A stretch of 64,000 nt of DNA from Antedon mediterranea (GCF_964355755.1 NC_092675.1:27066912-27130911), one strand, 5' to 3'; counted from the first letter of the stretch, positions 24,552 through 61,045 are shown. Notes: generated from the letters alone by a model not told the origin. Made by a program: numbers and translations.

Positions 24552-27500
24552 CTAATGTTCCACATTGCGCTGAAGTTTGTCATAGGCATTTTCTTCCACA
24601 AGATTCAATGGAAGAGCTGTGTCTACGTAAGCGTACATTCCCTCAGATGGTACCTTCTCTTGCGTATTCAGCTTTCCATACTCGTTTTGTTCGCATACTG
24701 CGATATCTCCTTTCTTGTCACCATTATTCTTTTCACTATGATTGTTTATAGTTGAGTATGGCAATTCATATTCACCATCAGATTTTCCATTGTTACCACC
24801 AGGTTCTACGTTCATGTCTTCGTCATTCAGGGTATCGTAAACGTCGCAATCATCTTTAAAACCTTCTGTGTTTGCGTAAAGTGTGTCGTCAAATCCATTT
24901 TGGAAGTCGCCTGTATTTTTCACCTGTGCTTTTTGTTGCATGTCAGTTGTATTTAGAATATCGTAAACGTCGCCCCCATCTTGTGTGAAAACCGTTGTGT
25001 TTTCATGTGGTGTTCCATCGAAACCTTTGTTGGACTGTAGATGTTGAATGTCCGCGACATTAAGGGCAGTATAGAGAGAATGTGATTCTAAGCTTAAATA
25101 TTTACTTTCAAACCCATCTTCGATTTCTTCATTATGATTGTTCCTACTTGCACTTTGTTTTGCTGATTGCAAATTGTCATCATCTTGTCTCATTTCTCGC
25201 TCCTCTCTTGGTTTTAGTGCATCTTGCACATCACTTGTTGTTGATTGTAGTTGTGTTGTATTCCTGTGTCGTATAGAATATTTTCAACTTCGCATGGATG
25301 TTGATTATCAGATGTAGAATGCTCGTGAATTGTTGCACCATTCGAGTACGAGACATTTTCTGATAAGGATAAAATAATTACTTATTAAATTTTAAATTAA
25401 TAATATAATCAAATATAATAAAAAATATGTTGTACTTGATCTTACTGTGAATAATTAAACGTGGGTGACCAGTCATGTTGGTCACATGAAAAAGATACGT
25501 AATGGATAAAGATAATACCTTTGATTAAAGTAGCTCTACCAAAGTTATAGCTTATTTTAAATATCAGGTAAAGGAAACTGAAATCATAAAGCACTAACGC
25601 CAAATTGGCCTGCCATTCGTTGGCATCAAATAGTAAATTGTGTTTGTTAATATACCAAACTGACAGAAACACATTGATCTATTAATAGAATGAAGTACAT
25701 TAAACACTAAGGAGTTGGATAGCCGAGTGGTTAAGACACTTGACTGTCATACAGATAGACCCAGTCCACTCAGCTGTAAATGAGTACCTGGTTGAAAATA
25801 CTAGGGAGAAAAAAGGCGACGTGGAAAGGAACTGGCCACCCTACCACATAATGCCGAGGCTTAGTATTATGAGCTCCTAACAGCTCATTCCCCTACGTTC
25901 AGAGAACACGGGACTCACCCTTTACATTAAACACTATAAATTATAGTAAAATAATCAATTCAAAGCTATATAGCAATTGTCCTCAAATTAGAGTTTCTGA
26001 CAGAGATGTGAAAAGTATTTTAACTTGGTTTTTATTATCATATCCAACGTTTAGCCTGGCGTCCTGAATTTAGCTCAACTCATAAATTCCACGAAAGTTT
26101 GCTTTAGAATTCTTCTCCTATCACGAACTCATTGTACATGAATTAAAAAATTCACATACCTTGTATGTCTTGATGTTTACTTCTTCTGTATCGGATGCAA
26201 CACGTGAACGTCACAATGACTCCAACAGCAAACACGAGTACAGGAATTCCGACAGTAACAAGTAAATCAGGATCGGTATTAAGATTTTGGTTATCTCCAT
26301 CTGGATACGTAACCTCCGAATAATCAGTAGTCGGTCCAGTGACGCCAATTGGATAGATATTAGATGTTTTAGAAGGTACTTCTGACGTCGGTATCGGGTC
26401 TGATGGTGTAGTAGACATCGACAATGACATCGATGCTGACGTCATGTCTGATGAGGTAGTAGTCATCAACGATGTCAACTGCGTATTCGTTGTATCAGTT
26501 GTTGACACAGTACATATTCCAAGATCTAAATCTGCATTCATTAAAATAGAAAAGAAGTTACGCTTTGTGACGCCATGCATACATTATTCACTGGCATAGC
26601 CATAAACAATTGGAACATTAAGGTACTTTAAGTATTTGTTGAATTTTAAGATGTTAATATACCGGCCACTTTTTCTATTTCTAAAATCTAATAATCAAAT
26701 ATAATTATGTATCAAGGTACAGGTAACAGGTATCATAATTTAAAAAGATCACCTAAAAAGTATAAACATCAACCAAGTATCAAGCAAGCAAATGTAATGT
26801 CTTCTTACCAGATGACTCACAGACCATGGTGTTTATTTCTTCTGTGAAGCAACCCTTGTTTCTAATGTATATATCATTTTGAACCCCCATTCTGTTTTCC
26901 ACTACAACGTTTGCACACCCAGCATATAAGTTCTTTTCCGGATATTCTTTATCGGCATAAACATTGAAGATACTTGTTGATGGATGTCTCAGACGTTTCA
27001 GAATACGGAGAACATTATCTGTCAGCTGATCATACTCGTCTTTGCTATTTATAACAGTGATGTTGCCTCCAACTTGTTCACATTCATGTTGTGTATCAAT
27101 ACATGATTCGTTTCTGTTTGTACTTCTTATGAACATGTAACAGTTAGGATTATCATACACATCCATGTCTAAAGAAAACATATTGATATAGCTATAGTAT
27201 TTAGATAGATACAGTAGATACATAGGTGCCTGGAATACGAAAATTAGATTTGAAGGTATTGTACACAATGAGCGGGAAAGTGTGGATAGCCAATGTTTAT
27301 GAATGGTTTATCTGTTGTTGCCACCGAACAACTCACAATATGTATAGCATCAATTGTTACTTTTGCATACCTCCATTCCGTTCTCGTCCACCTGGTTCTT
27401 TGTACATCCACCTATTATGTTCAGGGTATATCAGGTAGCAATTATTACCTGAACACTCAAAACCTCTATAAAACAACAAAGGGTATTTCTTTTTACTGCT

Positions 27501-29478: not shown

Positions 29479-32400
29479 CTAAAGTGCCATATTGCGCTGA
29501 AGCTTGTCATAGGCATTTTCTTCCACAAGATTCAATGGAAGATCTGTGTCTACGTAAGCGTACATTCCCTCTGATGGTACCTTCTCAGGCGTATTCAGCT
29601 TTCCATACTCGTTTTGTTCGCATACTGCGATATCTCCTTTCCTATCACCATTATTCTTTTCACTATGATTGTTTATAGTTGAGTACGGCAAGTCATATTC
29701 ACCATCAGATTTTCCATTGTTCCCATCAGGCTCTAAGTTCATGTTTTCGGCATTCAGGGTATCGTAAACGTCGCAATCATCTTTAAAACCTTCTGTGTTT
29801 GCGTAAAGTGTTTCGTCAAATCCATTTGGAAAGTCGCCTGCGTTTTTCTCCTGTGCTTCTTGTTGCATGTCTGTGACATTTAGAATATCGTATACTTCGC
29901 CTCCATCTTGGGTGAAAACTGGTGTGTTTACTTGTGATGTTTCAATATCTCTATTCGATTGTAAATGTTGAACGTCCCCGACATCAATGGCATTGTAGAG
30001 TTCGCATTCAACGGAAACTGAACTTCCAAAGTCATCTTCGATATCTTCATTACGATTGTGCCTACTACTTCCACTTTGTGTTGCTGATTGCAAATTGTCT
30101 GAATTATGTTTCATTTCTCGCTCGTCCCTTCGTTTTAATATATCTTTTTGTACATCACTTGTTGCTTGTAGTTGAATTCCAGTATCGTATAGAATATTTT
30201 CAACTACGCATGAATGCTGATTATCTGAATGCTCATGAATTATTGCACCATTAGAGTACGAGACACTTCCTATTGTAAAGATAAAATACTAATTTTAAAA
30301 TAAAATGTTTAATATATTGATAGATACTTTAATATTAGCACTATAACTCAAAAATAAGCCTAAACCACACGACCGGGGATACTCGCGTCATTTGAACTGG
30401 ACTGGCTTTAAATTCGGCTATGTTAGGACAACGACAACTTGTCGCGACAAAAAGAGCTCTTTAGAGACCAATTTCATTATGATGGCCAAATGTGGCGTAA
30501 TTCATGGCTATATTCTGTACAAAAAATCAGGTCGCGGGGGTATCATCATGAATTCACTAATTAGATGATGTCTGTCCAGCAGCATGGTACGGGTAAACCA
30601 ATAGTGTACTATGAAAGCAATACTTAACAACCAGCTTATTTAATAATAAACAAAGTAATTTGATAAAACATTTTTTAACAATAAATTGTGTTATAAGGTA
30701 CCACGTTGGTAGGAATACAGTATCATCTATTTGAAGTGTCTTACATAGAATATGTGATGTTCAATCTGATCAAAGTGGGATTAGTTTAAAATAAAATATG
30801 TAAAAACCCTTAATCATAAATTGCTGTAATAAATTGTCTTTAGAATAGGCAACTCGTTTGGAAATTCGATGGACTTTTGGTGTTTAAAAAATAGATAAAT
30901 TACCAGAATTCACATACCTTCATGTTTACTAAGTTGTTTGTTTTTTCTGTATCGGATGAAACAGCACATGAACGTCACAATGACTACAAAAACTACACAA
31001 AAAAGTAAAGGAATTCCGACTGGAACCAGCAAATTAGGATTAGTATTTTGATTATCACCATCTATATACGTAACCTGCGAATGATCTAAAGTAGTCTGTC
31101 GTGTGACATCAATTGGATAGGTAATATATGCTTTAGAAGGTACTTTTGACGTCGACATCGGGTCTGATGAAGAAGTAGACATCAATGATATCATCGATAC
31201 AGACGTCACTATCAGGTCTGATGGAGTAGTAGTTACCAACGATGCCAACTGCGAATTCGATGTATCAGTTGTTGACACTAGACAAATCCCACGATCTACA
31301 ACTGCATTCATTAAAATAAAAAAACGAGGTGTCCTGTCATTAAGTTCACCTCACAAAAATCTAGGACATGTTCCATAACAGTGGATAACGAAAGATCACG
31401 GCTATCATGATATTTTGTATTTTTCTCCATCTGTTTAAAATTATGGGTGAGATAATTTTGTGTCTAGAAGTATCCAGAACCATGTATGGTTCACAATACA
31501 ATGTTTTAAGACATATTAGGCCTCTTATTCAAACCCAAGAGATATGATTAAAATCAAATTAGAACACTTACGATGCAGATGGTGACAACGAAAACAATAA
31601 TGATACAAAAAGGTACGGTTTTTGTTTTTTTTTGTTTACTTTAGTATTTATAACATTGATATTTTAAAATGGCGGTTATAATCAAAAGCAATAACTTACC
31701 AGAAGACTCGCAAACAATGGTATCTACATTTTCTTCTGTGAAGCATTCCTTGTTTTCAATGTATATATCGTTCCAATTCAAAATTCCGTCATCGACTACA
31801 ATCTTTGCACATCCAACATCTACGTTATTCTTTGGAGAAACCTCGACATAGACGTTGAAAGTACTTTTTGATCCAAATGTTAGAATATGGAGAACGTTGT
31901 TTACCAGATGCTTGTACTCATCTTCGCTATTTATTACAGTCAAGTTGCCACCAATCTGTTCACATTCATCTTTGGTATCAACACACGATTCTTCTCTTTG
32001 TGTAGTTCTTATAAATGTATAGCAGCTGGAATTGCTGTACGCATTTTCATCTACAATTTAAAAAAACTCCGGTGTTGAACAAATGTGAGTAAATTTTATT
32101 AGATAGGAGGAGATGGCGGATGATAGAGATATAGATATTTATTTTTCTCCGTGTTATATTGACACTGTTGATTCGTCTATTTGTTTTTTAATATTTTTAT
32201 ATAGTTTATTTTATATCATTGTTGTTACTTTGGGAGTACGGAACCTGAACTCTTGTTATAGTGATTAGGTTCACTTTTAGGTTCCTGCCTACTCCCTTAG
32301 TTTCTGTGTTTTGTTTGTTTGTAACTGGTTTTTGGCAATAAATAATAATAATAATAATAATAAGCTATCTCTAGGCAATCACACTGTTTTGTTTATTTAA

Positions 32401-39277: not shown

Positions 39278-40370
39278 ATTTATCGATCTTGTATAAGATC
39301 CTCTAAAAGAGGAAGCGTGTCTATGTCACGTTTGTCGCTAATTGTAGTTTCCGACACCGTTTGAATGTTGTTTTCATGTAGTCGATGATAGGCTATATAT
39401 AAATAAATCTGAATCGTTCGTTCTGATTTAGGTTTCTGCTTATTTTATTTTGTATCTCCATTGAGATCCAGCCACTTTTACCCACAGCATTGTCATTTTT
39501 CAGTAATTTGCCTTGGATTAATAAAATATAAAATAAATACATAAATTAATTGTATTCTTAAATTTTTTTAATTCTATAATTGCTTTCACATTTTTTTAAT
39601 CTATATTGTGTTTTTAGCTCTTGCGTTCAGTTTGGTCGATTCTGTTTTGTCAAGATGTCTGTTCGTCTGATTATCTATTTTTTATTTTTTTTTTAATGCA
39701 TTCTGAATCGATGGAATTACATTTTATTTTGTAAATATTCTATAAAATATAAAAAATAACATTATCTGTTGAAGTTCAAATTTTATTCAAAATTTAAAGT
39801 TCTAAAAAGACATCCTCATTGCTATTAGTACATTATTAGTTATTGTATTCTTATCTGATATTATCTGATATTATCAGAAAGAAAAATATCAAGAATGAAT
39901 TTAAACAAATTTTCGAAACATGATATAAAAGTATGGCATTAATGATTTACTGAAAGGAAAGAATTATAGATTGAATATTTTAGATTAAATGTAACTAATG
40001 GTAAAGCTATGGTAATATTGTTAAATATGTTGATTATTCAGTGTCACAATCTTGCAATATTAAAAATCTGTGGTTACCTTTCATTCTGTGCACAAAGAAA
40101 TCCCCCCCCCCTCCCCCCAGAAAGAGAAACAATCTTGTTTTCAAAACTAAATTTAGCTACATTCAAACCAGCATCACATTTATTTTAAGCTTTAACAAAT
40201 AAATGTATTCACAAAAGAGATGGCCATTATTCCATCCTATTTCACAATATCATTAGATCAGAAAGAGTATTATAAAAAAAATCTTTTTGGTCGGCGTCAG
40301 CAAAAATGTTATAGCGTCAAGACTATTCATGATGACTTACTGTACTAGAAAATAATGTTTAATAATAATT

Positions 40371-43300
40371 TTAATTATTAATGAGTTCAATGTATGAAAT
40401 ATTTGGATCATCAACACATTGCTCAGATTTTGCCGGAACGATAATGTCATGGTACAATGTACTCTGGTCAGTTGATGGAACAGCAGCACCATGCTTCTGC
40501 GAAATTAGCTGGTATAATTCATTCTGGTGTGTATCTTGGTTAAGGGATTTACTGTCAGTCTTCTTAGAGTTTACCGAAGGAACGACAGTATCATGGTACA
40601 ATGTACTCTGGTCAATTGATGGAACAGCAGCACCATGCTTCTGCGAAATTAGCTGGTATAATTCATTCTGGTGTGTATCTTGGTTAAGGGATTTACTGTC
40701 AACCTCAGAATCTACAAAGATAAATCAACATGTGGCCAATTCGGACCACCTTTGTGCGATTAGCTTACATATCGCTGTATCTAGATTTCTCATCATTATG
40801 AATATTCGGTGATACAGCATCACATGTGTTTCACATGTATTGCCTATATTATCCTCCTATCAACCTAATTTTAAATGATCAGACACCACGTCAGTAAGCA
40901 TGCTGTATTACGGTACCAGATATTCCTATGATACTGGGCAAAGAGTGTCGTATGTGGAGATACAGCACTGGTTATCGGGTAATAATTGTGGATTGGACGT
41001 TAAGCTGAAGGTCAATGTGTTAAACATACACTTCAATTCATGTCTTTCAAAACAAAATGGGGAAGACAGCTGGATTGCAGAAAAGCGTTGACATAACCTA
41101 TTCAAAAAGAGGCAATAGTGTCAGTGTCAACAGACAACTAGGCCACTACAAGTGCTGTATTTTGTCTCTAAACGTTACGTACCTCTACTATGATTTCTTC
41201 CTGATGTTTTCAACTTGTTTCGTAGAAAGATTAAGGAACACATAACCACAATAGTAATTATAACAGCAGACGACACAGTTATGATATCAACCACTAGACC
41301 ATGACATTTGTCAAGTTCATACCAGGGAGTTGTTTCAAGCAAATTGTTTGGTGTATTCGTAAATGAATTCGCGTTGCTAACAGTGGCACTAGAAGTCGTT
41401 GTTAGATCCAATCGTGACGTTGTCGTTTCTGTCGTTAATTGGCATATTCCAGGAGTTAACTCTATAATAAAGTTTCGATATTTCAATAATGAGTGATAAG
41501 TAAACATCCAATGTATAAGGTAATAATCTGACAATAGTAAGAAATTGATAATAATCATATGCATTACTAACAAGTTATGATTTATAGGCCAGAGTATGAT
41601 ATTCTCATCAAACGCCATCAATATGTTTTATTTTAATCAATATTGGTATGTTAAATTTAATAGACAGTATGCCTACATACATTGTTTCCTTTTATATATT
41701 ATTTTCATTGACGTAATAATAGCAGCAACAATCCATATTGAGCCTACTCGGTAAATATAATGGATACATTAGCTATTTTCACTTGGTCATAAAAAGTTAA
41801 AGTTATTAGTTTGGTATGCACGTTGTCATACTCACCAGTAGATTCACAGATAATATTGTTTATCCTATCAGTTGTTGAGCAGTTCATGTTTTCACTATTT
41901 ACGGTGTTCGACAAAGTTCCATCATCCACATCGATTATTGCGCATCCCTTCTTTAGCTTTTTCTGGCGTAGTTCTGATTCTACATGGACATTAAACTTAC
42001 TACGAGACCTGACACTAAGAACTTGTAAAATGTTCTCTTTTAATTGATTGTATTCCTCAACGCTATTTATGACAGTGATGTTTCCGCCAACCATTTCACA
42101 TTCACGTTGGGCATCAATACACGATCTTCGTTTATTGCTCACTTTTATAAATGTATAGCAGTTGGGGTGGCTGTATACATGGTCATCTACCAAAGAAAAA
42201 GAGATACTTTATTGTCTGCCAAAAAATTACACTTACAATTAGGCCTACCTAATTAAATAACATTTAAAAGACGTAGCTATTTAATAATACAATTATAATT
42301 GTAATTATTTTAACCGATGTATTAATATTTAAACATCTCAGATGTTTCGGAAGCTTTACATATTGTTAACGGATTTGGCGAATTTTTACGGATTCGACAC
42401 ATTTTTACGGATTTGACGCATTTTTACGGATTTGACGCATTTTGTATTTTCATCACCACGAGATGCATGGTCATCTTTGTTCTGTGACATTTTTTTCAAT
42501 ATTATGTTATTGTTTTCTTTTCATGTAGTGTGTTTGTAATTCAAATTATTCTTCAAAATAGTTTATTTTAGCAATTAGAGTACATTAATTATTTTATAAA
42601 TGAAAACCAATGCGGAACAATAGTTTACAATGACAGTAATAATTATAATAAAGCTTAATATGATGACTGCAAATATAGCACCTGCATCATGCGTATTTCC
42701 GTTTGGATCTTGGTATTTCCATCTTCCATTTTCAGGATAAATCAGGTAGCAATTATTCACACCTGAACAATCAAAACTACTATAAAACAAAAATAAATAA
42801 ATTAAAAAGATTTAATTTAGAACTTCGAGAATGGCCAGTTGTTTCATTTACCTTTGTAAATACAAACACATAGGTCTATAATTATAAATCTGTCTGACGT
42901 AGTTTGTTTATATTATTAGAAGGAACTTGACCAATTGGATACTGTACGTTCATAAACTTTAAAAAACAGAATCATATCAATTAAGTGCTAACAAATTGTT
43001 GCTTTCAATGATTTCTGTTTATAGATTCGTGTTCGTGTGTAGATTCTCGACACTAACTTTTTTTAAATTAGGTTCAACAATCCAAAGTTATCTTATATCA
43101 AGTGTTGTCCATGCTCGGATTCTTTTACCAAACACCGAACGGGCCTAAAATAAAGTTCTTGCAGTAGTAACTTGGTTGTAGCGTCTCTTTTCCATTATTA
43201 TTCTGTTTTCAGTTTTACTTTTATGCTATGATTTGGTATCGATAGCTGTGTTTCGTTTATCCGGTCAATTTCAGTTTTTTAATATATTTTTGAAGATATG

Positions 43301-43778
43301 TCATACACGTTGACCTTTATATTCTTTACATAGGTATACAAATTGTATCGATACACAAACGTAATCATAAAAATGTCAGAAAGAAAATCAACCATTCATT
43401 TTACATTTGAGAATATTAAATGATAGTATGAAGACTTGTTGTTGTCGTACAGAATGTAGACCTATTTACATACATAATACTGTCAATAATGTGCCCTGAT
43501 AGAAAGCTCAATAAACAACGGTGATGTGTTCGTTCCATCGTGTCAACTAGTAGACCTAGACAATACCTATACACATAACTTTTTATTTTTTATTCGAGGG
43601 TTATTCCAAACGAATATTATCTTTTCTAAAATCAACACTATTTCGATCCGCCCATTTGTGTGGGCAAAAGCGTAGCTAATGGCATGATTGATAATACTTA
43701 CGGAGGACATGTTGCACCACTACATCTTGTTAGCATGCATATTACTGAGACACATTTCAGCCATTGTAAGCTATGCAT
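40371..43778 (-). CDS. CTLD-like receptor paralogue F, ITIM/ITSM tail (~381 aa)
   Basis: Exons 43702-43778 (MHSLQWLKCVSVICMLTRCSGATCP), 42682-42779, 41836-42186, 41183-41461, 40371-40711 (ELYQLI x2, TLYHDT/TLYHDI, terminal ISYIEL). Confidence 0.88.
42370..42445. repeat. 18-bp minisatellite (TTTTACGGATTTGACGCA-like) x4
   Basis: Direct tandem units visible in intron 2 of F. Confidence 0.75.
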
Positions 43779-43967: not shown

Positions 43968-44380
43968 TTAAGCTTGATTCCCACTAGAGACGCAACGCAA
44001 GGACGTATGCGAAACGCAAGCAAGTTGACCAATGACAACGACAGTTCGAATACTCCATCGGCGGTGATTTGTCAAACCATTTACGTTGCGTTTACGTCCT
44101 TGCGTTGCGCGTCCTAGTAAAAGCTTGGTTCCAACTAGGACGTAACGCAAGAACGTAAACGCAACGCAAGAGTGTTGACCAATGACAAGCGATAGTTCGA
44201 ATACTCCATCGGTGGTGATGTGTCAATCGAAGTTATAGACAGTTAGCAATCACAAGCGAATAAGCCATCGCTTGTGATTGGTCAATTCACTTGCGTTGCG
44301 TTACGTCCTTGCGTTGCGTCGCTAGTGGGAACCACGATTTTAACGTTGCGTTTACGTCCTTGCGTCGCGCGTCCTAGTAA
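43968..44380. mobile_element. Nested or rearranged palindromic MITEs (Harbinger-like TIR AGCTTGGTTCCCACTAG); partial copies ~33399-33475 and ~61120-61250
   Basis: AAGCTTG(A/G)TTCC(C/A)ACTAG...ACGCAACGCAAG starts, inverted ends CTTGCGTTGCGTCGCTAGTGGGAACCA, TTA/TAA context. Confidence 0.6.
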
Positions 44381-45361: not shown

Positions 45362-48122
45362 TTAATCAATGACATCCAGGTAGTAACTATTTTGATCAAC
45401 GGGACGTAGCTCCGAGTTTTGGTACAATTGAACGGCGGCAGTGTCGTTGTACAATTGAACAGCGGCAGTATCTGGTTGTGGACATACCTGGTACAATTCG
45501 TTCTGGTATGCGTCTGTCTTTATTGATTTAGGCCTATTGTCAGCCTCAAAATCTACAAAGACAAAATATTAGTAATTATACTACTACCATTATTTACTGG
45601 TAAGTGTTATATTAATACTACTATATTCAGCAACATAACGTACCTCTACCATGCTTTCTTCCTGATGTTTTAAACTTCTTTCGTAGAAAGAGTAAGACAA
45701 CTATAATTACAACAGTAATTATAACAGATGCAGACGAAATTATAATGTAACCCCGTACATCAGTTTGCAACGAATTGGTTGGTGTATCCGTAAATAAATC
45801 AACAACACCAGTAGTGACACCAAGATTGGTTGTTGTAGTTGGTTGTGTTGTTGTTGGTTGTGTTGATGTTGGTGGCTGTGTTGTTGTTGTTGGTGGTGGT
45901 TGTGTTGTTGTTGGTGGTGGTGGTTGTGTTGGTGGTGGTGGTGGTTGTGTTGGTGGTGGTGGTGGTGGTTGTGTTGGTGGTGGTGGTGGTTGCTTTGTTG
46001 CTGGTCGTGGTTTTGGTTCCTTCGGTACCGTCTCCCGGTCTGGCGATGATGGATCTGGAATAAATAAATAAAATATTTAACGCGTAACATATAAAATCAT
46101 CAATGATAAAAGACATTATTATTATTGATCATTCAATAGTTTAATACTTACAATAATCTATCTCAAAATTATTTTATGAAAAAAAATGCAAACAACAATT
46201 GTTTAGTGGGCCTACATACCTTCATGCCCTCCAGGAATACATGGTGCAGCCCTATAAAAACAAAATATAATTAAAATGACAATTTAAAGTGATACATTTA
46301 AATATGCATAACAAGGTGGTGGTATTTGTTGAGTTGTTTAATATTGTGTTATGTGGTCAAAAGACATATTTGTGTAACCACCATGGCATAATAACGTATT
46401 TACCAATCAATATATGCTTCGGTTTCTGATAGGCTGGTCCTCAATATCATCCGATTTGTTTTAAAATCATTCTATTGGACAATACGTTTGTCAGATTAGT
46501 TTCGATTTTAGCAAGCGATTTCTAGAAATATATACGTTGTGGCTTATTCTGTTCGTTGGTTGGTTGGCTATCAATCAGTCCTCAGTCCCAAAAATCCTGT
46601 TTTTTAATTTGTTGTCGATCCTTCATGGAAAACTGAAATTATTTAGAAGCTGTGGAATAACTGCCTGCTATTTTTATAAAGGCAGAAATAGCAAATTCGA
46701 TCAATTATTATACTGTATTTTGAAATTGTAAAAGCAACAATTAATCATTAGGCCTATATGTAATTTTTTTTTTTATATTTAAAATATTGTTAATTTTTTG
46801 TCTGTCAAATATCTATTGAACCCCGTTGAAAACAAGCTGATTTATTTCTATTAGGTGAAATTATTTTGTTTTAAGTAAGATGCTTTGTTTTGATTTGATT
46901 GTTACTCGTGGTACCCGAGTCTAGGACTCTCTCATCTTCTCCTCCACCTGGACACTATTGAGCCAACTTTTCAAGTCCTACTAGTTCTTTACGCGTCGTC
47001 TGACGGCTCTGAAACATGGCATGCATATAGGGCCTACTAGGGTAATAGATGAACAAAGCTAAAGAGAGAAAATGTTCGTACTTCAACCGGATGCAGAATT
47101 ATGACTTCATAAACATGGTACCAATCGAAAAAAAGTGCGATTTATAAAGGACTACTCCTCCCTTATTCGTTGTAGTATTAAGCTGGCATGAATATAGGCC
47201 CACTACAGGGCCATGTCCTCAAACCTATAGAGCCGGATTTTTAAATTTCAAACCGGATGCAGCCATATGACGTCTCGAAGATGGTACCTTGGTACCAAAC
47301 GATTTTCGTCGTAATATAGCCGTTTGGTGTCATTTCAAATGTATTGACTTGAAGAATAAGAATATATACAGTAAAGCCTATTTATGATATTGTGACGTCA
47401 CTTCTGCTCCCGGAAATAGCAAAACAAAAACGTATTTTGGTAGCGAGGTTGTTGATGTGTATGTGACGTTACATCCGGTCTTATGACGTCATTACAACTT
47501 CTTTTGCTGTACCCCGAGTATCGCACATTCGTGTTTTTATTTTCCAATGGCCTCTTCCTATATTTTTATTATTCAATTAAGCTCAATAGAGGTAGGCTTT
47601 TTATTATTATTCAGTTATTGTTTCCTTCTCTCTAGACTACAGGAAAAAATACTAAATGGAATAAGTGCATGCATAATTTGGGCTTTAGCCTTCTTACTCT
47701 CTGATTATTGCTCATTGGAAAGTAAGTCTATTATGATTAATAACCATAAATACGTCTTCTTATTTATTATTGCACTGATCATTCTGTCTATTATTAATTG
47801 TTTGTCAAAATGGACTCAAGTCTTCATAACACTAAATAAAAACTGAATAAAAATGTTACTTAACAAAACATATACAGTACACAATCTATATGCTGTGAAC
47901 GAGGCAGTAATTCATTTCATAATGGAATTACATAAAAGTCTCAGATTAAATTTATTTGATACTGAGACAATAACAGAAATAATACAACAACAAATGATTT
48001 TATTTTAAATGTAGTTGTACTTACCCTAAGCATGGTGGTCTCTGTGTCCTAATTAACGCAAATTGGCAAACAATGATTAGGAAAAATAAAATCAACCGAG
48101 GTACAATTGTTAAGAATTTCAT
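45362..48122 (-). CDS. Paralogue G: CTLD-less membrane protein with Pro/Thr-rich (TQPPPP)n ectodomain and ITIM tail (~243 aa)
   Basis: Exons 48025-48122 (MKFLTIVPRLILFFLIIVCQFALIRTQRPPCL), 46220-46251 (32-bp micro-exon AAPCIPGGHE), 45644-46054 (TKQPPPPTQPPPPP..., TM IIISSASVIITVVIIVVLLFL, RKKFKTSGR), 45362-45552 (ELYQV, QLYND, QLYQN, SYYLDV). Phases 2,1,1; frame is open. Confidence 0.8.
45830..46000. repeat. Coding (CCA/ACA)n low-complexity repeat encoding the Pro/Thr stalk of G
   Basis: GGT/TGT triplet runs on the + strand read as CCA/ACA codons on the - strand. Confidence 0.85.
46899..47540 (+). mobile_element. Probable HINE-type non-autonomous element in intron 1 of G
   Basis: 5' TACTCGTGGTAC(CCGAGT) and inverted 3' GTACCCCGAGTA (11/12 match), followed by a weak hairpin and T-run; internal ~150 bp repeat (AACCGGATGCAG...ATGGTACC twice). 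Confidence 0.5.
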
Positions 48123-51484: not shown

Positions 51485-51932
51485 TGTCACGAACTCCTCT
51501 TACGTATGTTTCCGAGCGGTTGAAAATACTTTAGGAACTCCCTTGTGACATAAAAGTATACACACAAAATCCACAAAGTTGTAAAATAACTCAAAAACAA
51601 AGCTTTAATTTCAATCAACTTCAACTTTTAACAATCCAGTAAGCACTTTAAACAACAGCTTCACAATGACTTTACAATATAACATCCAACCTCTAATCCA
51701 ACAACCTTACAATAGTTTACATCCCTTTATATACAAGATGCTCCCATCCTTCTAGATCATTCTTTATACTTCTCATTATTACATGATTACAGTTTCTATT
51801 AATAGCACTTCTGGAATGTTCTTGATTGTTCTTATTAATTATACATGGTTTATTAAATCAAAACATCTTATTCTAGAATGTTCATGTAAATACTATGTTA
51901 CTCTATATGTTAGGGAATGGTAATTTATTACA
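51485..51932 (-). repeat. 3' LTR
   Basis: Direct repeat of 57066-57513; adjacent to the polypurine tract. Confidence 0.97.
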
Positions 51933-52159
51933 CTCCCCCCTCTTTCTGAGCTCAAAACTCTTTCTTGGAGTTTTGAGGGGCAAGTATACACGGACGTGGC
52001 AAAATATAACATTTTCGTCCTATAAACCTGTTTAATATATGTATATAAATTCAAACTACATTACGTGAAAACCAAATTCTCATTACAAACAAAATGTAAG
52101 AAACAAGTAACTTATAAACATTAAAACCTATTTTGTCTATTTGTAAAGTAACCCTTGCT

Positions 52160-55100
52160 TTAAGTTAATGGTTTTCGTGACAATCCGTCAGCATTACCAT
52201 TAGAAATACCCCTTCTATGTACAACAGTAAAGCAATAAGGTTGTAAATCAAGACTCCATCTAGTTAGTCTTTTGTTTGTCTCTTTCATTTCAACCAACCA
52301 TTTGAGTGGTTGATGGTCAGTAACTATCTTAAATTTTCTGCCTAGTAGATAATATCGCAGACTTTCGACAGCCCATTTTATAGCTAAACACTCTTTCTCT
52401 ATAGTTGCATAATTCTGTTCTCTTGGGAACATCTTACGACTAAGATACAATACTGGATGGTCAGTACCATCAGGACCTAGTTGACTAAGTACTGCACCTA
52501 ACCCTCGATCTGACGCATCTGTTTGCAGTATAAACTCTGCATTAAAATCTGGGTTTCGTAACACAGGGTCTGAACATAACGCCTGTTTTAACTTTACAAG
52601 TGCATCTTCGCACTCAGGCGTCCATTTGATTTTATCTGGATGTTTTTTCCCCGTCAGATCAGTTAGAGGTGCTGCAATGTCAGCATAATTAGGAATAAAC
52701 TTTCGGTAGTATCCTGTCAGGCCAAGAAAAGATTTAACATCCTTCTTAGTTTTAGGGTTTTCCCATTGTACTACCGCTTCTACCTTAGTCTTTTGAGGAC
52801 GTATCATTCCCTCTCCAACTACATACCCTAAATAATGCACTTTACTATGTGCGAAACTACATTTTGCAGGTTTGACTGTCAGATTAGCTTGCTTGAGGGT
52901 CTGAAAAATGTCCCTAAGATGATGGATATGGCTTTCCCAGTCTGGACTAAATATTACCAGATCATCCATATAAGCTGCTGCATAAGATTCTTTCTTGCGC
53001 AACAGTTGATCCATCATTCTTTGAAACGTTGCAGGAGCCCCATGCAAGCCAAATGGTAAATACTTAAATTGGTACAAACCCATTGGTGTTGAAAAAGCTG
53101 TATATGGTTTTGACCGTTCAGTTAATGGAACCTGCCAGTAACCTTTACATAAATCTAACTTCGTTATAAATTTAGCAGGACCAACCCTGCCTATTATTTC
53201 ATCTATTCGAGGCATTGGATATGCATCAAACTTGCTCAAGCTATTCACTTTTTTGTAATTTACGCAAAAGCGAGCTGTACCGTCCGGCTTTGGTACCATG
53301 ATATAAGGAGAGGACCAGGGACTGTGAGACTCTTCTATTACCCCAAGTTCCAACATAGATTCTATCTCTTCTTTTACTTTGCCTAACTTAGCCTGAGGAA
53401 TTGGATAAGCTCTTAATCTAACTGGGTGTACCCCTAGGTTCATTTCAATATCATGCTTTATTACAGTAGTTTTCCCTGGCTTGTCCTGTAACACTGAGTC
53501 AAATTCAGAAAACACCTCCGCTAAATCTGAAAGCTGAGATTCATCTAGTCCTTCACCAGAATCTAAGGTTAAATTGGAACTAGAAATATTTGACCAAGAA
53601 ATGTCCTTATCCTGACCCTCGTCTTGTCCAGTTACATCATTTATAGCCAGCATAACCTCAATAGTTCTACGATGAAATTGTTTTAAAAGATTTATGTGGT
53701 AGACTTTTGACTTTTTCCGTTTATCATTAGTTTCCACCTCATAGTTTACTGGACCTAGTTTCCTTAAAACCTTGTAAGGACCTTGCCATTTTGCCTCTAA
53801 TGCATCGTTACTAGATGGTAAGAGTAATAGGACTTCATCACCTGGACTAAATTCTCTACAAACAGATTTCTGATCATATTTTTGTTTTTGCCTTGTTTGG
53901 GATAGTTCAATGTTTTCCTGGACTAGATCTTTCATTGAAGTTAATCTATCTCTCATTTTAACAACGTGTGAAACCACACTTTGAGGACCTGTCACCGTGC
54001 CTGTCCACATTTCTTTCATTATATCAAGTGGACCTCGTACCTTCCAACCATACAATAATTCAAATGGAGAGAACCCAGTTGACTCCTGCGGTACCTCCCT
54101 ATAAGCAAATAATAGGTACGGAAGCAATTTATCCCATTCTCGGGGATCATCCTGAACAAATTTTCTAATCATAGCCTTGAGGGTGCCATTAAATCTTTCC
54201 ACTAATCCATCGGTTTGTGGATGGTAGGGAGAAGTAGTCAAGCCCTTAATTGAAAGTAACTTATAAATTTGACTCAACAACTTAGAGGTAAAGTTAGAGC
54301 CTTGATCGGTTAAAATTTCTGTTGGTACCCCTACCCTGGAAAATAATTTAATCAACTCATCCGCTATCTTTGGAGCTTCAATACTTCTCAGTGGGATAGC
54401 CTCCGGATATCGAGTTGCATAATCACATATAACCAAGACATATTTATTTCCTGTCTTACTCCGTGCTAGTGGACCAACAATGTCCATAGCGATTCGGCGG
54501 AATGGTTCACTGATTATTGGCATAGGAATCATCGGGGCCTTCAATTTAGTTTTATACTTTGAAGTTTTCTGACAATTTTCACAAGTGTTGCAATATTCGG
54601 TCACATCCTTTCTAATACCAGGCCAAAAGAATCTCTGCTTTATCCTATCTAATGTCTTTTTCCTACCTAAATGACCTGCCAAAGGAATATCATGTGAGAC
54701 TTTCAATACACTATTACGGCAAGGGTATGGAACTACTAATTGCTCTATTGGTTCTGTCTGGTGTTTAGTGAAAACCTGCCTAAATAAAATTCCATCCTTA
54801 CAGACTATCTTTATAGTGTCATCATCCTTCTGTACTAACATCTGTTCTCGAAGTGAAATTAAAGTTCTATCCTTAACCTGATAATCCTTAATTTTATCTC
54901 TGCCAATATCTAAAATGTCTAATTCACTATCTTGGCTAGATTGAGCTTCCTTTGTTTTTGCAAACTCTTTCCTAACTTTTCGTTTCTCACTTCTGGTTTT
55001 ATGAACTTTTTCCTTGGGAGGGTTGTTACTGAGTAGTTGGCCATCTAAATGTCCAAATTCTTCTTGAAAATTAATCACATCATCTAACTGATGTGAAATA

Positions 55101-56734
55101 ACCCCAGAAGCTTTTTCCGACTTTAATTCGTTTTCCTCTCTTAGTTTTTCTTTTCTAGCATGATCTCTAGTGGCAACAAAACTATGCCTATCATGATTCT
55201 TATCCCTCTTCCCTAATAAGTCTCCAAATTTAGGAAAGTCCCTACCAAGAATTACATCTCTTGGTAAATCGCTGCAAACGCCAACCAACAAATTATGGTC
55301 TTCGTTATTAATCTTAATATTGACGAATGCAGTAGGATAGGCTTGGACATGGTCATGGACGCACCTGCATGTAATTTTAGCTTGCTCCGCGCGATTAATT
55401 TTCTTAGCCGCTACTAAATCAGAATGAACAAGTGTCATATCACATCCAGAGTCTATCAAAATTTCACAATCACACCCTTCAACTAGGCCTCTACAAATGT
55501 AAGGTGTACATGGTTTTGAAACAGTATCTGTCTTTGTCGACAAAAAGCCATCCTTACTTCGACAAAATCGTTCTATGTGGCCTACTTTTTTGCACCGTCT
55601 ACAAACGAGAGGTTGTCTAGCGTCAGATTGTGATTTATGAAAGTTATCAGGGGGATTATTATTACCCTTACTGTCAACTTCAGGAGTGCCTTTCACTGTT
55701 TTCTCCTGGTTGTTTCTATTTTCGTGTTTTCTATTTTGAAACTTTTTCTCAAAATCGATACCTTTTCTAGCTTGAAAATAATTATCTGCTAATTCTGCAG
55801 CATTTAATCCAGAATCTGGTTTATGTTCTTTAACCCAAATTTGTACCCCTGTGGGCATAATATCTATTAATTGCTCTAAAATAACAATTTCAGCTAAATC
55901 ATCTTTGCTTTTATCAGCAGGTCTAGCCCACTTAGTAAATAAATCTTTTAACCTAACATACATTTCTCTATAACTTTCTTCACTTTTCTTTTTAATTGAC
56001 CTAAACCTTTGCCTATATGTCTCTTCAGTTATGTCATACCTTTGTAATATTGCTTTCTTCACTATGTCGTACTGGTTACTTTCTGTCACTGGTAGTGATG
56101 CATAGGCTGCTCTTGCTTTGCCTGTCAAATGAGGTATTAGTTTTACTACCCAGTGTTCTTTTCGCCACTCATAGGTGTTAGCAATTCGTTCAAACGTAGT
56201 GAGATAATTTTCAATATCATCACTATCAGAAAGTTTTGCAATCTGAACTTCCTTCAATCTCATCATGTCTTTTAATCGTTTCTCCTCACTGTCCTTTTGC
56301 TTATCCATTAACGCCATTACTAACGCTTGCTGTTTCTCCATATCTTCCCTACGTAAACGTTCTTGTCTTTCCATATCTTCTTTGCGTAAACGTTCTTGTG
56401 TTTCCATATCTTCTTTGCGTAAACGTTCTTGTTTTTCCATATCTTCTTTGCGTAAACGTTCTTGTTGTTCCATCATCTGCTGCATCATAAGATTCTGTTG
56501 TTGCATTTGCTGCTGCATTTGCTGCTGCATTTGCTGCTGCATTTGCTGCTGCATCAACAACAAAACATCTTTTGAAGATGAGTCAGCCCCTGTAGGGTTA
56601 TGTCCACTGGTTGGTCCAGACTCTTCTGCCTGTTGTTCAGGTTGTACTGATTGAACTGATTCTACATCCGAATCAGTTTCATCGCCACCGCTGTATTCTC
56701 TACCGGATCTTGTTGTTGATTGTTTATCAGCCAT
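52160..56734 (-). CDS. Gag-Pol polyprotein (SCAN-like capsid, CCHC knuckle, protease, integrase, RT, RNase H), 1524 aa
   Basis: YRQRFR..LEQL..WVKEHKP; CRRCKKVGHIERFC; LIDSG; H..LAGH..C..C, IAMDIVGP, TDQGSNF, GLVERFN; LDLCKGYWQ, YMDD; QTDAS, EKECLA, NADGLSR. Uninterrupted ORF. Confidence 0.97.
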   Translation of the reverse strand: MADKQSTTRSGREYSGGDETDSDVESVQSVQPEQQAEESGPTSGHNPTGADSSSKDVLLLMQQQMQQQMQQQMQQQMQQQNLMMQQMMEQQERLRKEDMEKQERLRKEDMETQERLRKEDMERQERLRREDMEKQQALVMALMDKQKDSEEKRLKDMMRLKEVQIAKLSDSDDIENYLTTFERIANTYEWRKEHWVVKLIPHLTGKARAAYASLPVTESNQYDIVKKAILQRYDITEETYRQRFRSIKKKSEESYREMYVRLKDLFTKWARPADKSKDDLAEIVILEQLIDIMPTGVQIWVKEHKPDSGLNAAELADNYFQARKGIDFEKKFQNRKHENRNNQEKTVKGTPEVDSKGNNNPPDNFHKSQSDARQPLVCRRCKKVGHIERFCRSKDGFLSTKTDTVSKPCTPYICRGLVEGCDCEILIDSGCDMTLVHSDLVAAKKINRAEQAKITCRCVHDHVQAYPTAFVNIKINNEDHNLLVGVCSDLPRDVILGRDFPKFGDLLGKRDKNHDRHSFVATRDHARKEKLREENELKSEKASGVISHQLDDVINFQEEFGHLDGQLLSNNPPKEKVHKTRSEKRKVRKEFAKTKEAQSSQDSELDILDIGRDKIKDYQVKDRTLISLREQMLVQKDDDTIKIVCKDGILFRQVFTKHQTEPIEQLVVPYPCRNSVLKVSHDIPLAGHLGRKKTLDRIKQRFFWPGIRKDVTEYCNTCENCQKTSKYKTKLKAPMIPMPIISEPFRRIAMDIVGPLARSKTGNKYVLVICDYATRYPEAIPLRSIEAPKIADELIKLFSRVGVPTEILTDQGSNFTSKLLSQIYKLLSIKGLTTSPYHPQTDGLVERFNGTLKAMIRKFVQDDPREWDKLLPYLLFAYREVPQESTGFSPFELLYGWKVRGPLDIMKEMWTGTVTGPQSVVSHVVKMRDRLTSMKDLVQENIELSQTRQKQKYDQKSVCREFSPGDEVLLLLPSSNDALEAKWQGPYKVLRKLGPVNYEVETNDKRKKSKVYHINLLKQFHRRTIEVMLAINDVTGQDEGQDKDISWSNISSSNLTLDSGEGLDESQLSDLAEVFSEFDSVLQDKPGKTTVIKHDIEMNLGVHPVRLRAYPIPQAKLGKVKEEIESMLELGVIEESHSPWSSPYIMVPKPDGTARFCVNYKKVNSLSKFDAYPMPRIDEIIGRVGPAKFITKLDLCKGYWQVPLTERSKPYTAFSTPMGLYQFKYLPFGLHGAPATFQRMMDQLLRKKESYAAAYMDDLVIFSPDWESHIHHLRDIFQTLKQANLTVKPAKCSFAHSKVHYLGYVVGEGMIRPQKTKVEAVVQWENPKTKKDVKSFLGLTGYYRKFIPNYADIAAPLTDLTGKKHPDKIKWTPECEDALVKLKQALCSDPVLRNPDFNAEFILQTDASDRGLGAVLSQLGPDGTDHPVLYLSRKMFPREQNYATIEKECLAIKWAVESLRYYLLGRKFKIVTDHQPLKWLVEMKETNKRLTRWSLDLQPYCFTVVHRRGISNGNADGLSRKPLT

Positions 56735-57065
56735 ATTTTAAATCTGGATGAGGGTCTTGTTACTAGTTAATCGTAGTTACCGAGACGTTCACAAGTCTAC
56801 TGTTCCAAATAAATAATGTACTGTTCTTAAAACAATGTTTGTGTACTTACGATTAAACAAAACGTAGCACTGCGGCTTCCGTAAAATATCACAGTATCGT
56901 AAGTACCGCTTTCACAAAATATCAATAAAGTACAGTTGATCCTAAACAGCCACCAATCTATGGCAAAATACAGTAGATCAAACTGCTACCACAAAATATC
57001 ACAACCGTAGATAAATACACAGTTAAGTCGAACAGTAGATCGAAATAACCGCTGCCACCAAATTA

Positions 57066-57513
57066 TGTCACGAACTCCTCTTACGTATGTTTCCGAGCGG
57101 TTGAAAATACTTTAGGAACTCCCTTGTGACATAAAAGTATACACACAAAATCCACAAAGTTGTAAAATAACTCAAAAACAAAGCTTTAATTTCAATCAAC
57201 TTCAACTTTTAACAATCCAGTAAGCACTTTAAACAACAGCTTCACAATGACTTTACAATATAACATCCAACCTCTAATCCAACAACCTTACAATAGTTTA
57301 CATCCCTTTATATACAAGATGCTCCTATCCTTCTAGATCATTCTTTATACTTCTCATTATTACATGATTACAGTTTCTATTAATAGCACTTCTGGAATGT
57401 TCTTGATTGTTCTTATTAATTATACATGGTTTATTAAATCAAAACATCTTATTCTAGAATGTTCATGTAAATATTATGTTACTCTATATGTTAGGGAATG
57501 GTAATTTATTACA
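57066..57513 (-). repeat. 5' LTR
   Basis: Direct repeat of 51485-51932; adjacent to the PBS. Confidence 0.97.
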
Positions 57514-57899: not shown

Positions 57900-58273
57900 A
57901 ACAATATTACGCCATGTTATATCAAACTTTTTCTACAAAACAGTTCGAGATCAAAAACTTAAATACAATCCATATGGGTTTAATCTCATTACATGAAAAT
58001 AACAAATATTTTTCATTTTTAATTTCATTACATCTTTCACATATGTCATATATAGAAAGATTCCAAATTTGTAGCTTACTTTTACACGCAAGAATGTGCG
58101 ATGTAGTAGTTTGAAATTGAATTGCGCAACTTTTGTGATATGTTGCATAGAAAACACCTTGTTCAAAAAGTGTAATTTTGAAATTCTATCTCCCATTTTC
58201 TTTGTGCTATAGGAGTTGATATTACATTTTCCACAAATAAATTATAAAGTAGTTTTGCATTAAGTAAAAGCAA
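57900..58273 (-). mobile_element. Degenerate L1/Tx1-type LINE ORF2 C-terminal fragment
   Basis: KVAQFNFKLLHR, then in another frame ENEKYLLFSCNEIKPIW, resembling the L1 zf-RVT C-terminal region. Confidence 0.45.
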
Positions 58274-61045
58274 AGCAAATTGTTTGGTGAATTCGTAAAT
58301 GAATTCGCGTTGCTAACAGTGGTACTAACATGTGTTGTTAGATCTAATCGTGCCGTTGTTAGATCCAATCGTGGCGTTGTTAGATCCAATCGTGACGTTG
58401 TTAGATCCAATCGTGACGTTGTCATTTCTGTCGTCAATTGGCATATTCCAGGAGTTAACTCTATAATAAAGTTTAGATATTTCAATAATGAGTGATAAGT
58501 CATTCACTTCTTGCTTGGTCGGACAAGTAAACATTTAATGTAAGGTAATAATCTGACAATAGTTGGAAATTGATAATAATCATATGCATTACTACCCAAA
58601 CAAGTTAAGATTTTATAAGCCAGAGTATGATATTCTCATTAAACGCCATCAATATGTTTTATTTTAATCAATCGTGGTATGTTCAGTTTTTTTTAATAGA
58701 CAGTAGGCCTACATATATTGTTTCCTTTTCTATATTATTTTCATGGACGTAATAATAGCAGCAACAATCCATATTAAGCCTACTCGTTCAATATAATAGA
58801 TGCATTAGCTATTTTCACTTGGTCAGAAAAAGTTAACGTTGTTAGTTGGGTATGCATGTAATAATATTGTAAACACGTTGTTAATACTCACCAGTAGATT
58901 CACAGATAATGGTGTTTATCTTATCAGTTGCTGAACAGTCCATGTTTTCACTATTTACGGTATTTGAAAATGTTCCATCATACACATTGATTATTGCGCA
59001 TCCCTTGTTGAGATTTTTCTGGGGTAGTTCTGATTCTACATGGACATTAATTATACTACGAGAATAGATATGAAGAACATCTAAAACGTTATCTATTAAT
59101 TGATCGTATTCATCAACACTATTTATAACAGTAATGTTCCCGCCAATCATTTCGCATTCCCGTTGAACATCAATACACGATCTTTGTTGATTGCTCACTC
59201 TTTTAAATGTATAGCAGTTAGGGTTGCTGTATACGGTTCTAACTGCAAACAAACACAACATTACACTGACAATTAGGCCTACCGAAACATCAAAATGCAA
59301 TAAGTATCGTTAATAATTAATTTAACCGCTATTTAAACTGTTGTCTTATATTCTCAGACTCATGCCCTTAACAATTTTGGCTATTTGACTCGTTTTAACG
59401 GATTTGACTCGTTTTAACTGATTTGACTCGTTTTAATTGATTTGACTCGTTTTAACTGATTTAACTCGTGTTAACTGATTTGACTCGTGTTAACTGATTT
59501 GACTCGTTTATTCTAATTGTATTATCATCACGTATTACATGTTTGTTTCTGTAACTTTCTCTTTTGTATTGTTTCCCTTTTATGTACTGTGTTTTTAGCA
59601 ATTAAAGTACATTAGTTAATCAATAAATAAAGCTTATCACTGTAGCACCTGTATCTTGCGTTCGTCCTTCTGGATCTTGGATTTTCCATCCTCCATTTTC
59701 AGGGTATATCAGGGAGCAATTATTCACATCTGAACAATCAAAACCACTGTAAAACACAAATAAATAAAATTAATGAATAAGAGATTTAATTTCGAACTTT
59801 GCGAATGGCCCGTTGTTTCGTTTATCTTTATAAATACAAATACATAGGTCTATATAAAATCATGTTGTATCTGTTTTAGAAGAAACTCGACCAATAGAAA
59901 CATTCATAAACTTAAAAAAACAGAATCATATATCATATCAATTAATATTAAGTGCTAACTTTCAGTATTTCGTGTTTAAGTTTCAACAATCCAAAGTTAG
60001 CTTGGTCAAGACAGTGGAAATCGGCAAAGGTTCAGGCCACACTTGCTCCATGGTTCTGGTAGTAGATCAAGATCTCGGATATGGTCCAGTGTACACAAAA
60101 TGCTCACGTGCACTTTAAAGTACCTATATCTTTCGAGACGAGTATAGACCCCCTTTTATGGTTCAAACAGCCATTACTTTAAAAGTAGGCCTTCTTGTAA
60201 TCCGTAATAATCAATTTCTTGATTGAACTTACGACGATGAAGATAAATAACTAATATTACGGAAGTTATTGCAGTAACTTAGTTTTAGCGTTTTTTCCAT
60301 TATTATTATGTTTTCTTTATCTTTAAGAATTACTATTACTGTTATTATGAAAAAATGTCAACGAAGAATTCAACCATTCATTTTATGTTTGAGAATATTA
60401 AATGTTAGTATGAAGACTTGTTGTCGTACAGAATGTAGATCTAGATTTACATACATAATACTGTCAATAATGTGCCCTGATGGAAAGCTCAATAAACACG
60501 GTGATGTTCCATCATGTTAACTAGTAGGTCTATACACACCTACAAACACAATTATATATATGTTTTTATTCGACGGTTATTCTAAACGAATATTATCGTT
60601 TGTAAAATCAACACTATTTCGATCCATCTAGGCCTGTTTGTGTGCGTAAAAGAATAGCCAATGGCCAATGGCCAATGTAAATAGGTTGGGTAATCATCAG
60701 GAATAGTCCTGAACAGGGAGATGAGCGCCCCTGCCCACCGATGAGTTTCGGGATCCCTTTGACCCGGAGGGAGGGTCCCTACCAAGGGTTACAGGTCCCA
60801 GGTTTTTAGTTGTTTTTAAAATTAATTAGTGTTCCATGACCTTCTCATCAAAATTAACGTCTCTCATTGTTGTGCTATGTCAACATAATGTCAATGACGG
60901 CGAAATGTCTCCAATAATGGGTATAGCATGCAAACAAGTAATAAGTAAGTAAGTTTGATAATACTTACGGAGGACATGTTGCACCACTCCATGTTATTAA
61001 CATGCATATTACCGAGACACATTTCAGCCATTGTGAGCTGTGCAT
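58222..61045 (-). CDS. Paralogue H: close relative of F lacking TM and tail (putative secreted CTLD protein, ~254 aa, or pseudogene)
   Basis: Exons 60969-61045 (MHSSQWLKCVSVICMLITWSGATCP), 59649-59746, 58892-59242, 58222-58460 (ELTPGICQL, four TT[SPA]RLDL units, FTNSPNNLL, then foreign CFYLMQNYFIIYLWKM*). Confidence 0.7.
59383..59510. repeat. 19-bp minisatellite (ATTTGACTCGTTTTAACTG) x~6.5
   Basis: Direct tandem units in intron 2 of H. Confidence 0.85.

Follow-up and report, generated by a model that had tools for sequence, protein, structure and literature searches.

The locus considered here raises the question of what becomes of a lectin-type receptor gene once its lectin domain is gone. 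It lies in a 64,000-nt stretch of Antedon mediterranea DNA (the window; AT-rich animal DNA with zero N) and carries the label G given to it in the initial annotation, which also named the paralogues E, F and H; the labels A, B, C, D and E0 were added in this study. G can be assembled on the minus strand from four exons (98 + 32 + 411 + 191 nt), all bounded by AG/GT and with intron phases 2, 1 and 1, to give 243 amino acids and a stop codon. As read from the sequence, its anatomy is that of a predicted type I membrane protein encoded by four in-frame exons, and the exon and junction anatomy proposed initially is borne out as a predicted model with canonical sites. The features are as follows (CTLD, C-type lectin-like domain; TM, transmembrane).

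48025..48122, minus strand: G exon 1, with the ATG, a hydrophobic predicted signal peptide and Cys31; its 3' end is in phase 2 and its nearest relative is the signal exon of E
46220..46251, minus strand: G exon 2 (micro-exon), 32 bp, phase 2 to 1, with Cys37; likely a vestige of family exon 2 (CTLD N-terminus)
45644..46054, minus strand: G exon 3, stalk, TM and juxtamembrane region, phase 1 to 1, without the stalk Cys
45362..45552, minus strand: G exon 4, encoding the stop codon and the cytoplasmic tail, in which there are six Tyr, two YxN motifs and one ITIM-like motif
45828..45992, minus strand: CCA/ACA/CAA repeat of G, 55 codons (27 Pro, 19 Thr, 8 Gln, 1 Ser), with Pro runs of 5, 6, 5, 4, 3 and 2
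45684..45746, minus strand: predicted TM helix of G, aa 147-167, uncharged, then RKKFK; hydropathy peak 3.1
45371..45388, minus strand: terminal ITIM-like motif of G, SYYLDV; counterparts are ISYIEL in F, SYYTDV in E and SSYIEI in P0003
45281..45286, minus strand: candidate polyadenylation signal AATAAA, 75 nt 3' of the G stop

Splice sites were scored with a matrix trained on the other paralogues (26 donors, 22 acceptors). The donors of G score 8.4-11.2 and its acceptors 6.4-10.0, against family medians of 8.6 and 7.7, respectively. Between exons 1 and 3 there are 1642 AG..GT pairs, of which 36 are open and in phase. The micro-exon ranks first among these 36, with a pair score of 16.5 compared with 1.9 for the runner-up pair using other sites; its donor is the top GT of the 99 in this interval, and a pair of equal score was found at 0 of 115,635 other positions tested. 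From the phase 2 end of exon 1, the TM-bearing frame is reached only via the micro-exon. The frame of exon 3 is a stop-to-stop ORF (46076-45627) with zero Met codons, and therefore an ATG-based ORF track would miss it, in agreement with the earlier remark that the repeat frame had been overlooked by the ORF track.

The relatives of G are receptors with a folded ectodomain, for which a neighbouring gene serves as the reference.

40371..43778, minus strand: F, complete five-exon family member; its match to P0002 is 100%

The five exons of F comprise a signal exon (phase 0 to 2), a 98-nt exon 2 (2 to 1), a 351-nt domain exon (1 to 1), a stalk-TM exon (1 to 1) and a tail exon, and the same plan is seen in the RefSeq protein P0016. 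Seven CTLD exons lie in tandem on the minus strand within the window. The lectin-like exon of F matched, among 67 candidates, crinoid proteins only: six of Antedon mediterranea and four of Anneissia japonica, all 'uncharacterized'. The family records (RefSeq 'uncharacterized' P0001-P0010 and P0016-P0024) come from these two species; the main blocks of P0002 and P0006 are 100% identical to the window, and 18 of the 18 family records retrieved retain the CTLD, all of them having been retrieved via a CTLD query or its clusters. Among the titles and abstract starts listed in a literature search this crinoid family was absent; supplements of genome papers could list the cluster. One of the records, P0001 of Anneissia japonica, is a 609-aa model with two successive CTLD-stalk-TM units, which is either a fused prediction or a real tandem receptor, and its tail holds repeats resembling the 'LYxDT' motif of G.

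Pfam recognizes the family domain weakly (Lectin_C, E 0.016, in 1 of 7 exons), and ESM features gave 0.91 for the family, with Lectin_C in 28 of 30 hits. An AlphaFold model of P0006, built from a 14-row alignment, has pLDDT of 78-93 per 10-residue block across residues 31-180; its best Foldseek match is to BDCA-2 (E 4.5e-4), and VIA-align superimposes it on the mannose receptor CRD4 with Z 8.8 and rmsd 3.9 over 107 aligned residues, nearly all of the 50 rows being CTLDs. By its fold, the sibling ectodomain is in this model a CTLD that extends over residues 28 to 180, approximately. As the structural alignments begin at about residues 28-31, at a CPxGF motif spanning exons 1 and 2, exon 2 is part of the CTLD.

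This CTLD body is what G lacks. No CTLD remnant was detected between 42253 and 58855 by protein HMM and nhmmer searches, which recovered 7 of 7 real CTLD exons; the interval covers both introns of G and the space between G and H, and the earlier claim that G has no CTLD exon is upheld. Intron 2 of G measures 165 nt, against 351 nt for the CTLD exon of the family. The piece missing from G is, from the comparison of exon plans, the symmetric phase 1-1 CTLD exon, the loss of which keeps the reading frame because of that symmetry. In 7 of 7 other paralogues the stalk exon carries a Cys at its beginning; G has none there, as would be expected if the partner of this Cys had been located in the lost part of the CTLD. 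A match between intron 2 of G and intron 2 of F (E 2.5e-5) was rejected, its score of 67.5 standing against 71.5 at the 99th percentile of 2530 AT-rich background windows.

The micro-exon was initially thought to have replaced the ligand-binding domain, and this claim has to be revised, since the micro-exon shares the phases (2 to 1) and the Cys register of family exon 2, where the CTLD fold of the family begins. The two Cys stand at -2 and +4 around the codon split by intron 1, the same in G as in 7 of 7 paralogues (C-x5-C). On the other hand, the DNA of the micro-exon is not significantly similar to that of family exon 2 (at best 12 of 1000 shuffles, among seven comparisons), and in a direct alignment the family exon-1 Cys falls on Arg28 of G, with Cys31 lying within a 9-nt extension. 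Its acceptor scores as exon-2 type (8.2 versus at most 2.8), but the classifier used gave the right answer in just 10 of 22 leave-one-out tests. Position, phase and Cys register, and not sequence identity, which has diverged past significance, are therefore the grounds for deducing descent from exon 2; the micro-exon is most likely a shrunken CTLD N-terminus. Exon 2 would have shrunk from 95-98 to 32 nt with its phases and C-x5-C register retained, and the two N-terminal Cys of G may form a loop or join dimers.

The stalk of G was altered in a different manner. The repeat makes up residues 65-119, that is 55 of about 117 ectodomain residues, and tandem arrays span 45827-46012. All 27 of its Pro codons are CCA and 162 of its 165 bases are C or A, which is a signature of slippage, and the proposed origin of G by exon loss and microsatellite-type expansion agrees with this composition and with the absent CTLD exon. 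The ectodomain had been described as two Cys plus (TQPPPP)n; the two Cys are there, but the repeat is not uniform and grades from Pro-rich to Thr-rich. Ser and Thr account for 31% of the G stalk versus 30-39% across six paralogue stalks, whereas proline accounts for 34% versus 6-11% in the siblings. Judged by these stalk compositions, the Thr-rich stalk is inherited and proline alone is new in G, so that the mucin-like Ser/Thr content is ancestral. Likeness to extensins is a resemblance only: plant extensins are defined by Ser-Pro4 repeats, and in G the Pro runs come after Gln, with 1 Ser in 55 repeat residues. The mucin criteria of Pajic et al. (PMC9417175) are exonic repeats with a Pro/Thr/Ser-rich domain, a Thr+Ser content of the peptide above 20% and a share of predicted O-glycosylation sites above 4%. 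G has the exonic repeat and a Pro/Thr/Ser-rich domain (P, T or S at 47 of the 55 repeat positions); its Thr+Ser content is below the 20% bar for the whole protein (18.5% of 243 aa) and above it for the ectodomain alone (31 of 117, 26%).

Behind the stalk, the family features return. The TM and juxtamembrane region is 79.5% identical to that of F over 122 nt of DNA (tblastn E 1e-12 within the window), and the tail matches those of E (E 5e-7) and F (E 6e-5); the F-like stalk end, TM and juxtamembrane region and the E/F-like tail of the earlier description are thus both confirmed. The tail contains six Tyr, one terminal ITIM-like motif, two YxN and no ITAM. SYYLDV, of the S type, is the single match in G to the ITIM-like consensus [ILVS]xYxx[IVL], which was taken from a report on Hydractinia Alr genes (10.1101/2022.03.04.482883). 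In 20,000 shuffles of the tail such a motif appeared by chance in the last 12 residues in 1.7% of cases and anywhere in the tail in 17%. It is common to G, E, F and P0003, and absent from the tails of P0004, P0005, P0006 and P0008. The wording 'inhibitory co-receptor' goes too far on the basis of one S-type motif in a tail that also has two YxN; inhibition is our best guess for the predicted role of G. The tails of paralogues C, D and E0 (19462-20324, 24552-25359 and 29479-30269, minus strand) are acidic, long (about 270-290 aa) and rich in Tyr motifs, and form a class distinct from the short tails of E, F and G.

G belongs to the crinoid family of type I CTLD receptors by its signal exon, by the exon 2 phases and C-x5-C, and by its TM, juxtamembrane region and Tyr tail, and it holds a tandem position among them. 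It differs from them in having no CTLD body, no stalk Cys, an exon 2 of 32 nt and a stalk with 34% Pro. Exon 1 is similar to that of E (z 7.2, 0 of 300 shuffles) and of D (z 4.6), with no similarity to the F/H type, in line with the claim that the phase-2 signal exon of the family was retained; G is E-like at its 5' end and F-like in the TM. Within the CTLD-bearing family, G joins F and P0003 (support 88/89; the placement of G itself is not starred, and its branch measures 0.75) in a tree built after trimming most of the G repeat and without paralogues C, D, E0 and H. Since G nests within a CTLD-bearing family, the loss of the CTLD is most likely derived.

The history suggested by these comparisons would be a tandem duplication, in-frame loss of the symmetric CTLD exon, loss of the stalk Cys and slippage of CCA/ACA/CAA triplets. 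We regard G as a derived, domain-less paralogue that is probably functional. How it might function is a separate problem. To the reading that this CTLD-less paralogue with a polyproline/Thr stalk is a predicted ligand-independent membrane scaffold, with a phosphotyrosine tail for the recruitment of SH2 proteins and an extended stalk as spacer, we would give an even chance. The stalk Thr would be O-glycosylated and the stalk would form a polyproline-II rod, in which the 55-aa repeat, with a rise of 0.31 nm per residue, would extend over about 17 nm. Phosphorylation of the tail would take place in cis or on co-clustering with lectin-bearing siblings. YxN is a Grb2 site, and these motifs would recruit Grb2-type adaptors, and the terminal ITIM-like motif a phosphatase of the SHP type. 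The assignment of YxN to Grb2 agrees with the SIT sites quoted in PMC2193021. Such predicted SH2 recruitment would most likely damp the signalling of siblings.

The surroundings of G include its neighbour H.

58222..61045, minus strand: H, F-like, with signal exon, exon 2 and CTLD kept; the stalk exon loses homology at about 58273 and then stops, with no TM and no tail

The stalk exon of H breaks after a 21-bp unit repeated 4.2 times, and H could yield a secreted CTLD. Pieces of F-type 3' flank occur upstream of G (50983-50749 and 49086-48886), and the piece that follows them in this flank lies downstream of G (45189-44581), which fits repeated tandem duplication, the pair H-G resembling F-E. 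Between G and H lies a young Gypsy-type LTR retrotransposon (51485-57513, minus strand) with 448-bp LTRs that differ at 2 sites, a 4-bp target duplication and an intact 1525-aa ORF; by contig depth it is multi-copy. A joint 51342>57522 was rejected as an empty allele of this element, since its X2 depth of 6659, compared with about 150 for single-haplotype contigs, suggests that the host repeat has further copies. Repeats of high copy number with inverted arms, probably non-autonomous DNA elements, occur at 46940-47500 (intron 1 of G) and 43970-44380 (upstream of F). Elsewhere in the array, P0006 joins 18231-14473 and 4490-4221 (minus strand) as one gene over a gap of about 10 kb, so that two apparent paralogues may be one gene; within the gap are a broken LINE-like element (about 5900-10500, plus strand) and one of the two copies of a duplication (499-3795 versus 11096-14420; 3.3 kb, 97%). 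Internal duplications of 204 bp and 144 bp are found in paralogues C and F, respectively. Exon 2 of C (about 21520-21430, minus strand) has no GT at the tested position, and a second partial exon-2-like stretch lies at 21474-21430. Upstream of H, at about 63600-61970 (minus strand), lies what looks like a TM gene of another kind, which has a hydrophobic exon near 62500-62370 and an ITIM-like tail end, STYAIV.

Could G be a decaying or silent by-product of birth and death in such an array, in which the CTLD was lost, constraint was relaxed and frame-keeping triplet slippage enlarged the repeat? We consider this unlikely, although with a chance that deserves attention. Constraint on G appears weak, as dN/dS to F is about 0.8 (dN 0.31, dS 0.40; 87 codons in an uncertain alignment), and its branch is long; the comparison with E gave dN 0.49 and a saturated dS of 2.3 (78 codons, 6 of them mis-positioned exon-1 codons). 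The open frame of G could partly reflect selection on its CTLD-bearing ancestor, and the neighbouring H is broken. Against decay, the start, the six splice sites, the signal, the TM and the terminal Tyr motif are all intact, and the micro-exon donor is the strongest GT of its interval. Frame, start and splice sites all survived in 99, 20 and 0 of 5000 simulated neutral copies at 0.10, 0.15 and 0.20 substitutions per site, that is in at most 2%, in a simulation of substitutions only, without indels. Weak constraint and a kept frame are compatible if G changes rapidly under a requirement to remain translatable, or if its release from constraint is recent.

Decay would also be favoured by the depth of G in one sample. 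In S2, G is found on long single contigs with zero differences and an X2 depth of 149-151, against 245-275 for contigs 39691-40111, 42748-43493 and two from elsewhere. The X5 depth was 21-23 for G versus 31-52, and the less clean X3 depth 9-16 versus 9 and 25. No second allele at least 80% alike over exon 4 or the micro-exon was present in the S2 contigs, which, together with the depth of about half, indicates that in this sample G is likely on one haplotype only. G is therefore likely hemizygous in S2 and dispensable on one haplotype; the deeper contigs could be two-copy paralogues. On the other hand, S1 (X1, of low depth and partial cover) also contains G, and no coding change is listed in its covered parts, the read comparison skipping the repeat at 45829-46003. 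The differences listed for S1 are two intronic 1-nt deletions and one intronic substitution; a further change, not itemized, falls in a piece that crosses the acceptor of exon 3. Contigs of X1, flagged 'RNA?', span exon-intron borders unspliced with no joint over G, and are uninformative on splicing.

A missing protein record could likewise speak for decay. No G protein was found at E <=10 among 20 candidates of 239-2000 aa or among 150 candidates of 110-2000 aa, and of 5 weak matches among 1.84 billion representatives, the 4 inspected were unrelated repeat-rich proteins. However, of the seven CTLD loci in the window just two match a retrieved protein record, and with five of them unmatched, the lack of one for G weighs little.

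Apart from the scaffold reading preferred here, a more elaborate one sees in G a lectin immune receptor in mid-conversion to a polyproline protein, with a two-Cys stub and a PRiMA-like docking rod built by a CCA microsatellite, which would be a presence/absence variant that tunes signalling, or anchors it, in crinoid self/non-self recognition; it appears doubtful to us. Taken by itself, the idea that the polyproline is a new binding surface, anchoring a secreted partner as PRiMA anchors cholinesterase tetramers, is quite improbable. The order of signal, two Cys, runs of 5-6 Pro and TM, and the fact that proline is the sole compositional novelty of G, are reminiscent of PRiMA and ColQ, in which Cys lie upstream of a proline-rich tract, in PRiMA on a TM protein; PMC8518539 describes how PRiMA is laid out and how BChE promiscuously takes up polyproline peptides. 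PRiMA has four Cys upstream, according to the same text, but G has two in its predicted mature ectodomain, and these stand 28 residues ahead of the first Pro run. In addition, Thr-Gln interrupts the Pro runs of G, the pure CCA codons are what slippage would be expected to leave, the Tyr-rich tail is that of a lectin receptor, from which G descends, and no PRiMA-like relative was among the 5 matches.

A shade less probable still is that exons 3 and 4 of G supply stalk, TM and tail to the signal and CTLD exons of H, giving a lectin on a long polyproline stalk. The join would be in frame (375 aa) and H has no TM of its own. We keep this as a minor alternative since the RefSeq model P0006 connects CTLD and stalk exons that lie about 10 kb apart in the same window. 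However, the intron would have to be 12,837 nt long, passing over the intact stalk acceptor of H and through the Gypsy element, which lies on the same strand and has polyA-like signals in its LTR. G also possesses a signal exon and a connecting micro-exon with strong sites, and no protein of 239-2000 aa containing the TM region of G was found. Least probable of all is a frame switch by the 32-nt exon, with inclusion giving the membrane polyproline form and skipping a secreted 117-aa Thr/Asn-rich glycopeptide: skipping does open a 117-aa frame with 10 N-glycan sequons, but all frames are open in a repeat with 162 of 165 bases C or A, so that such a frame is expected by chance, and its stop lies 155 nt before the last junction, which by the 50-nt rule for transcript decay makes the skipped form a likely decay target.

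As a predicted scaffold, G may be compared with several known systems. CD43/leukosialin-type sialomucins of vertebrates have an extended O-glycosylated stalk, a TM and a signalling tail with no folded ectodomain; they are not known to be related to G by descent, and G differs in its polyproline-rich rod and Tyr-based tail. The adaptors SIT, LAT and TRIM resemble G in having no ligand-binding fold, an extracellular Cys and non-ITAM Tyr motifs including ITIM and YxN types (PMC2193021); this is likeness of plan, and common ancestry is not implied. SIT has an 18-aa ectodomain with one Cys and 136 aa inside, by the same source, and G, with about 117 residues outside and 76 inside, does not combine a short ectodomain with a longer Tyr tail. 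Lineage-specific gain of exonic Pro/Thr repeats within existing genes was described as mucinization by Pajic et al. 2022, and G likewise gained such a repeat in an existing gene (PMC9417175). The cases in that text are secreted mammalian proteins without TM that gained Thr/Ser on a Pro-rich precursor, whereas G is a TM receptor paralogue in which Pro was gained on a Ser/Thr-rich stalk and a folded domain was lost. G resembles SIT, PRiMA and mucinized genes without having their defining features. At the level of the array, Hydractinia Alr offers, among the systems compared, what seems the nearest analogue: tandem single-pass receptors of an invertebrate, one exon per module, ITIM tails and many broken or altered copies (10.1101/2022.03.04.482883). 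Alr proteins, by the same text, have Ig and Fn3 domains, ITAMs and a proven role in allorecognition, whereas G has no ITAM and a role that is predicted from sequence. By descent G is a member of the crinoid family, and in its mode of action it would be most like a mucin-type membrane spacer with an adaptor tail.

Receptor arrays are known to lose domains and to expand repeats; the combination of CTLD loss with polyproline gain was not met among the titles and abstract starts listed in our search. If G is not expressed, it is an instance of ordinary array decay. If it is expressed, it would represent a new kind of surface protein made cheaply in two steps, as a symmetric exon was lost and triplets slipped, while both sibling states still adjoin it in the array, and repeat-driven mucin-like gain would reach beyond secreted mammalian proteins to an invertebrate membrane receptor. 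The fast-evolving crinoid CTLD cluster as a whole, with its Tyr tails and likely haplotype-level variation in gene content, is a candidate immune or recognition locus.
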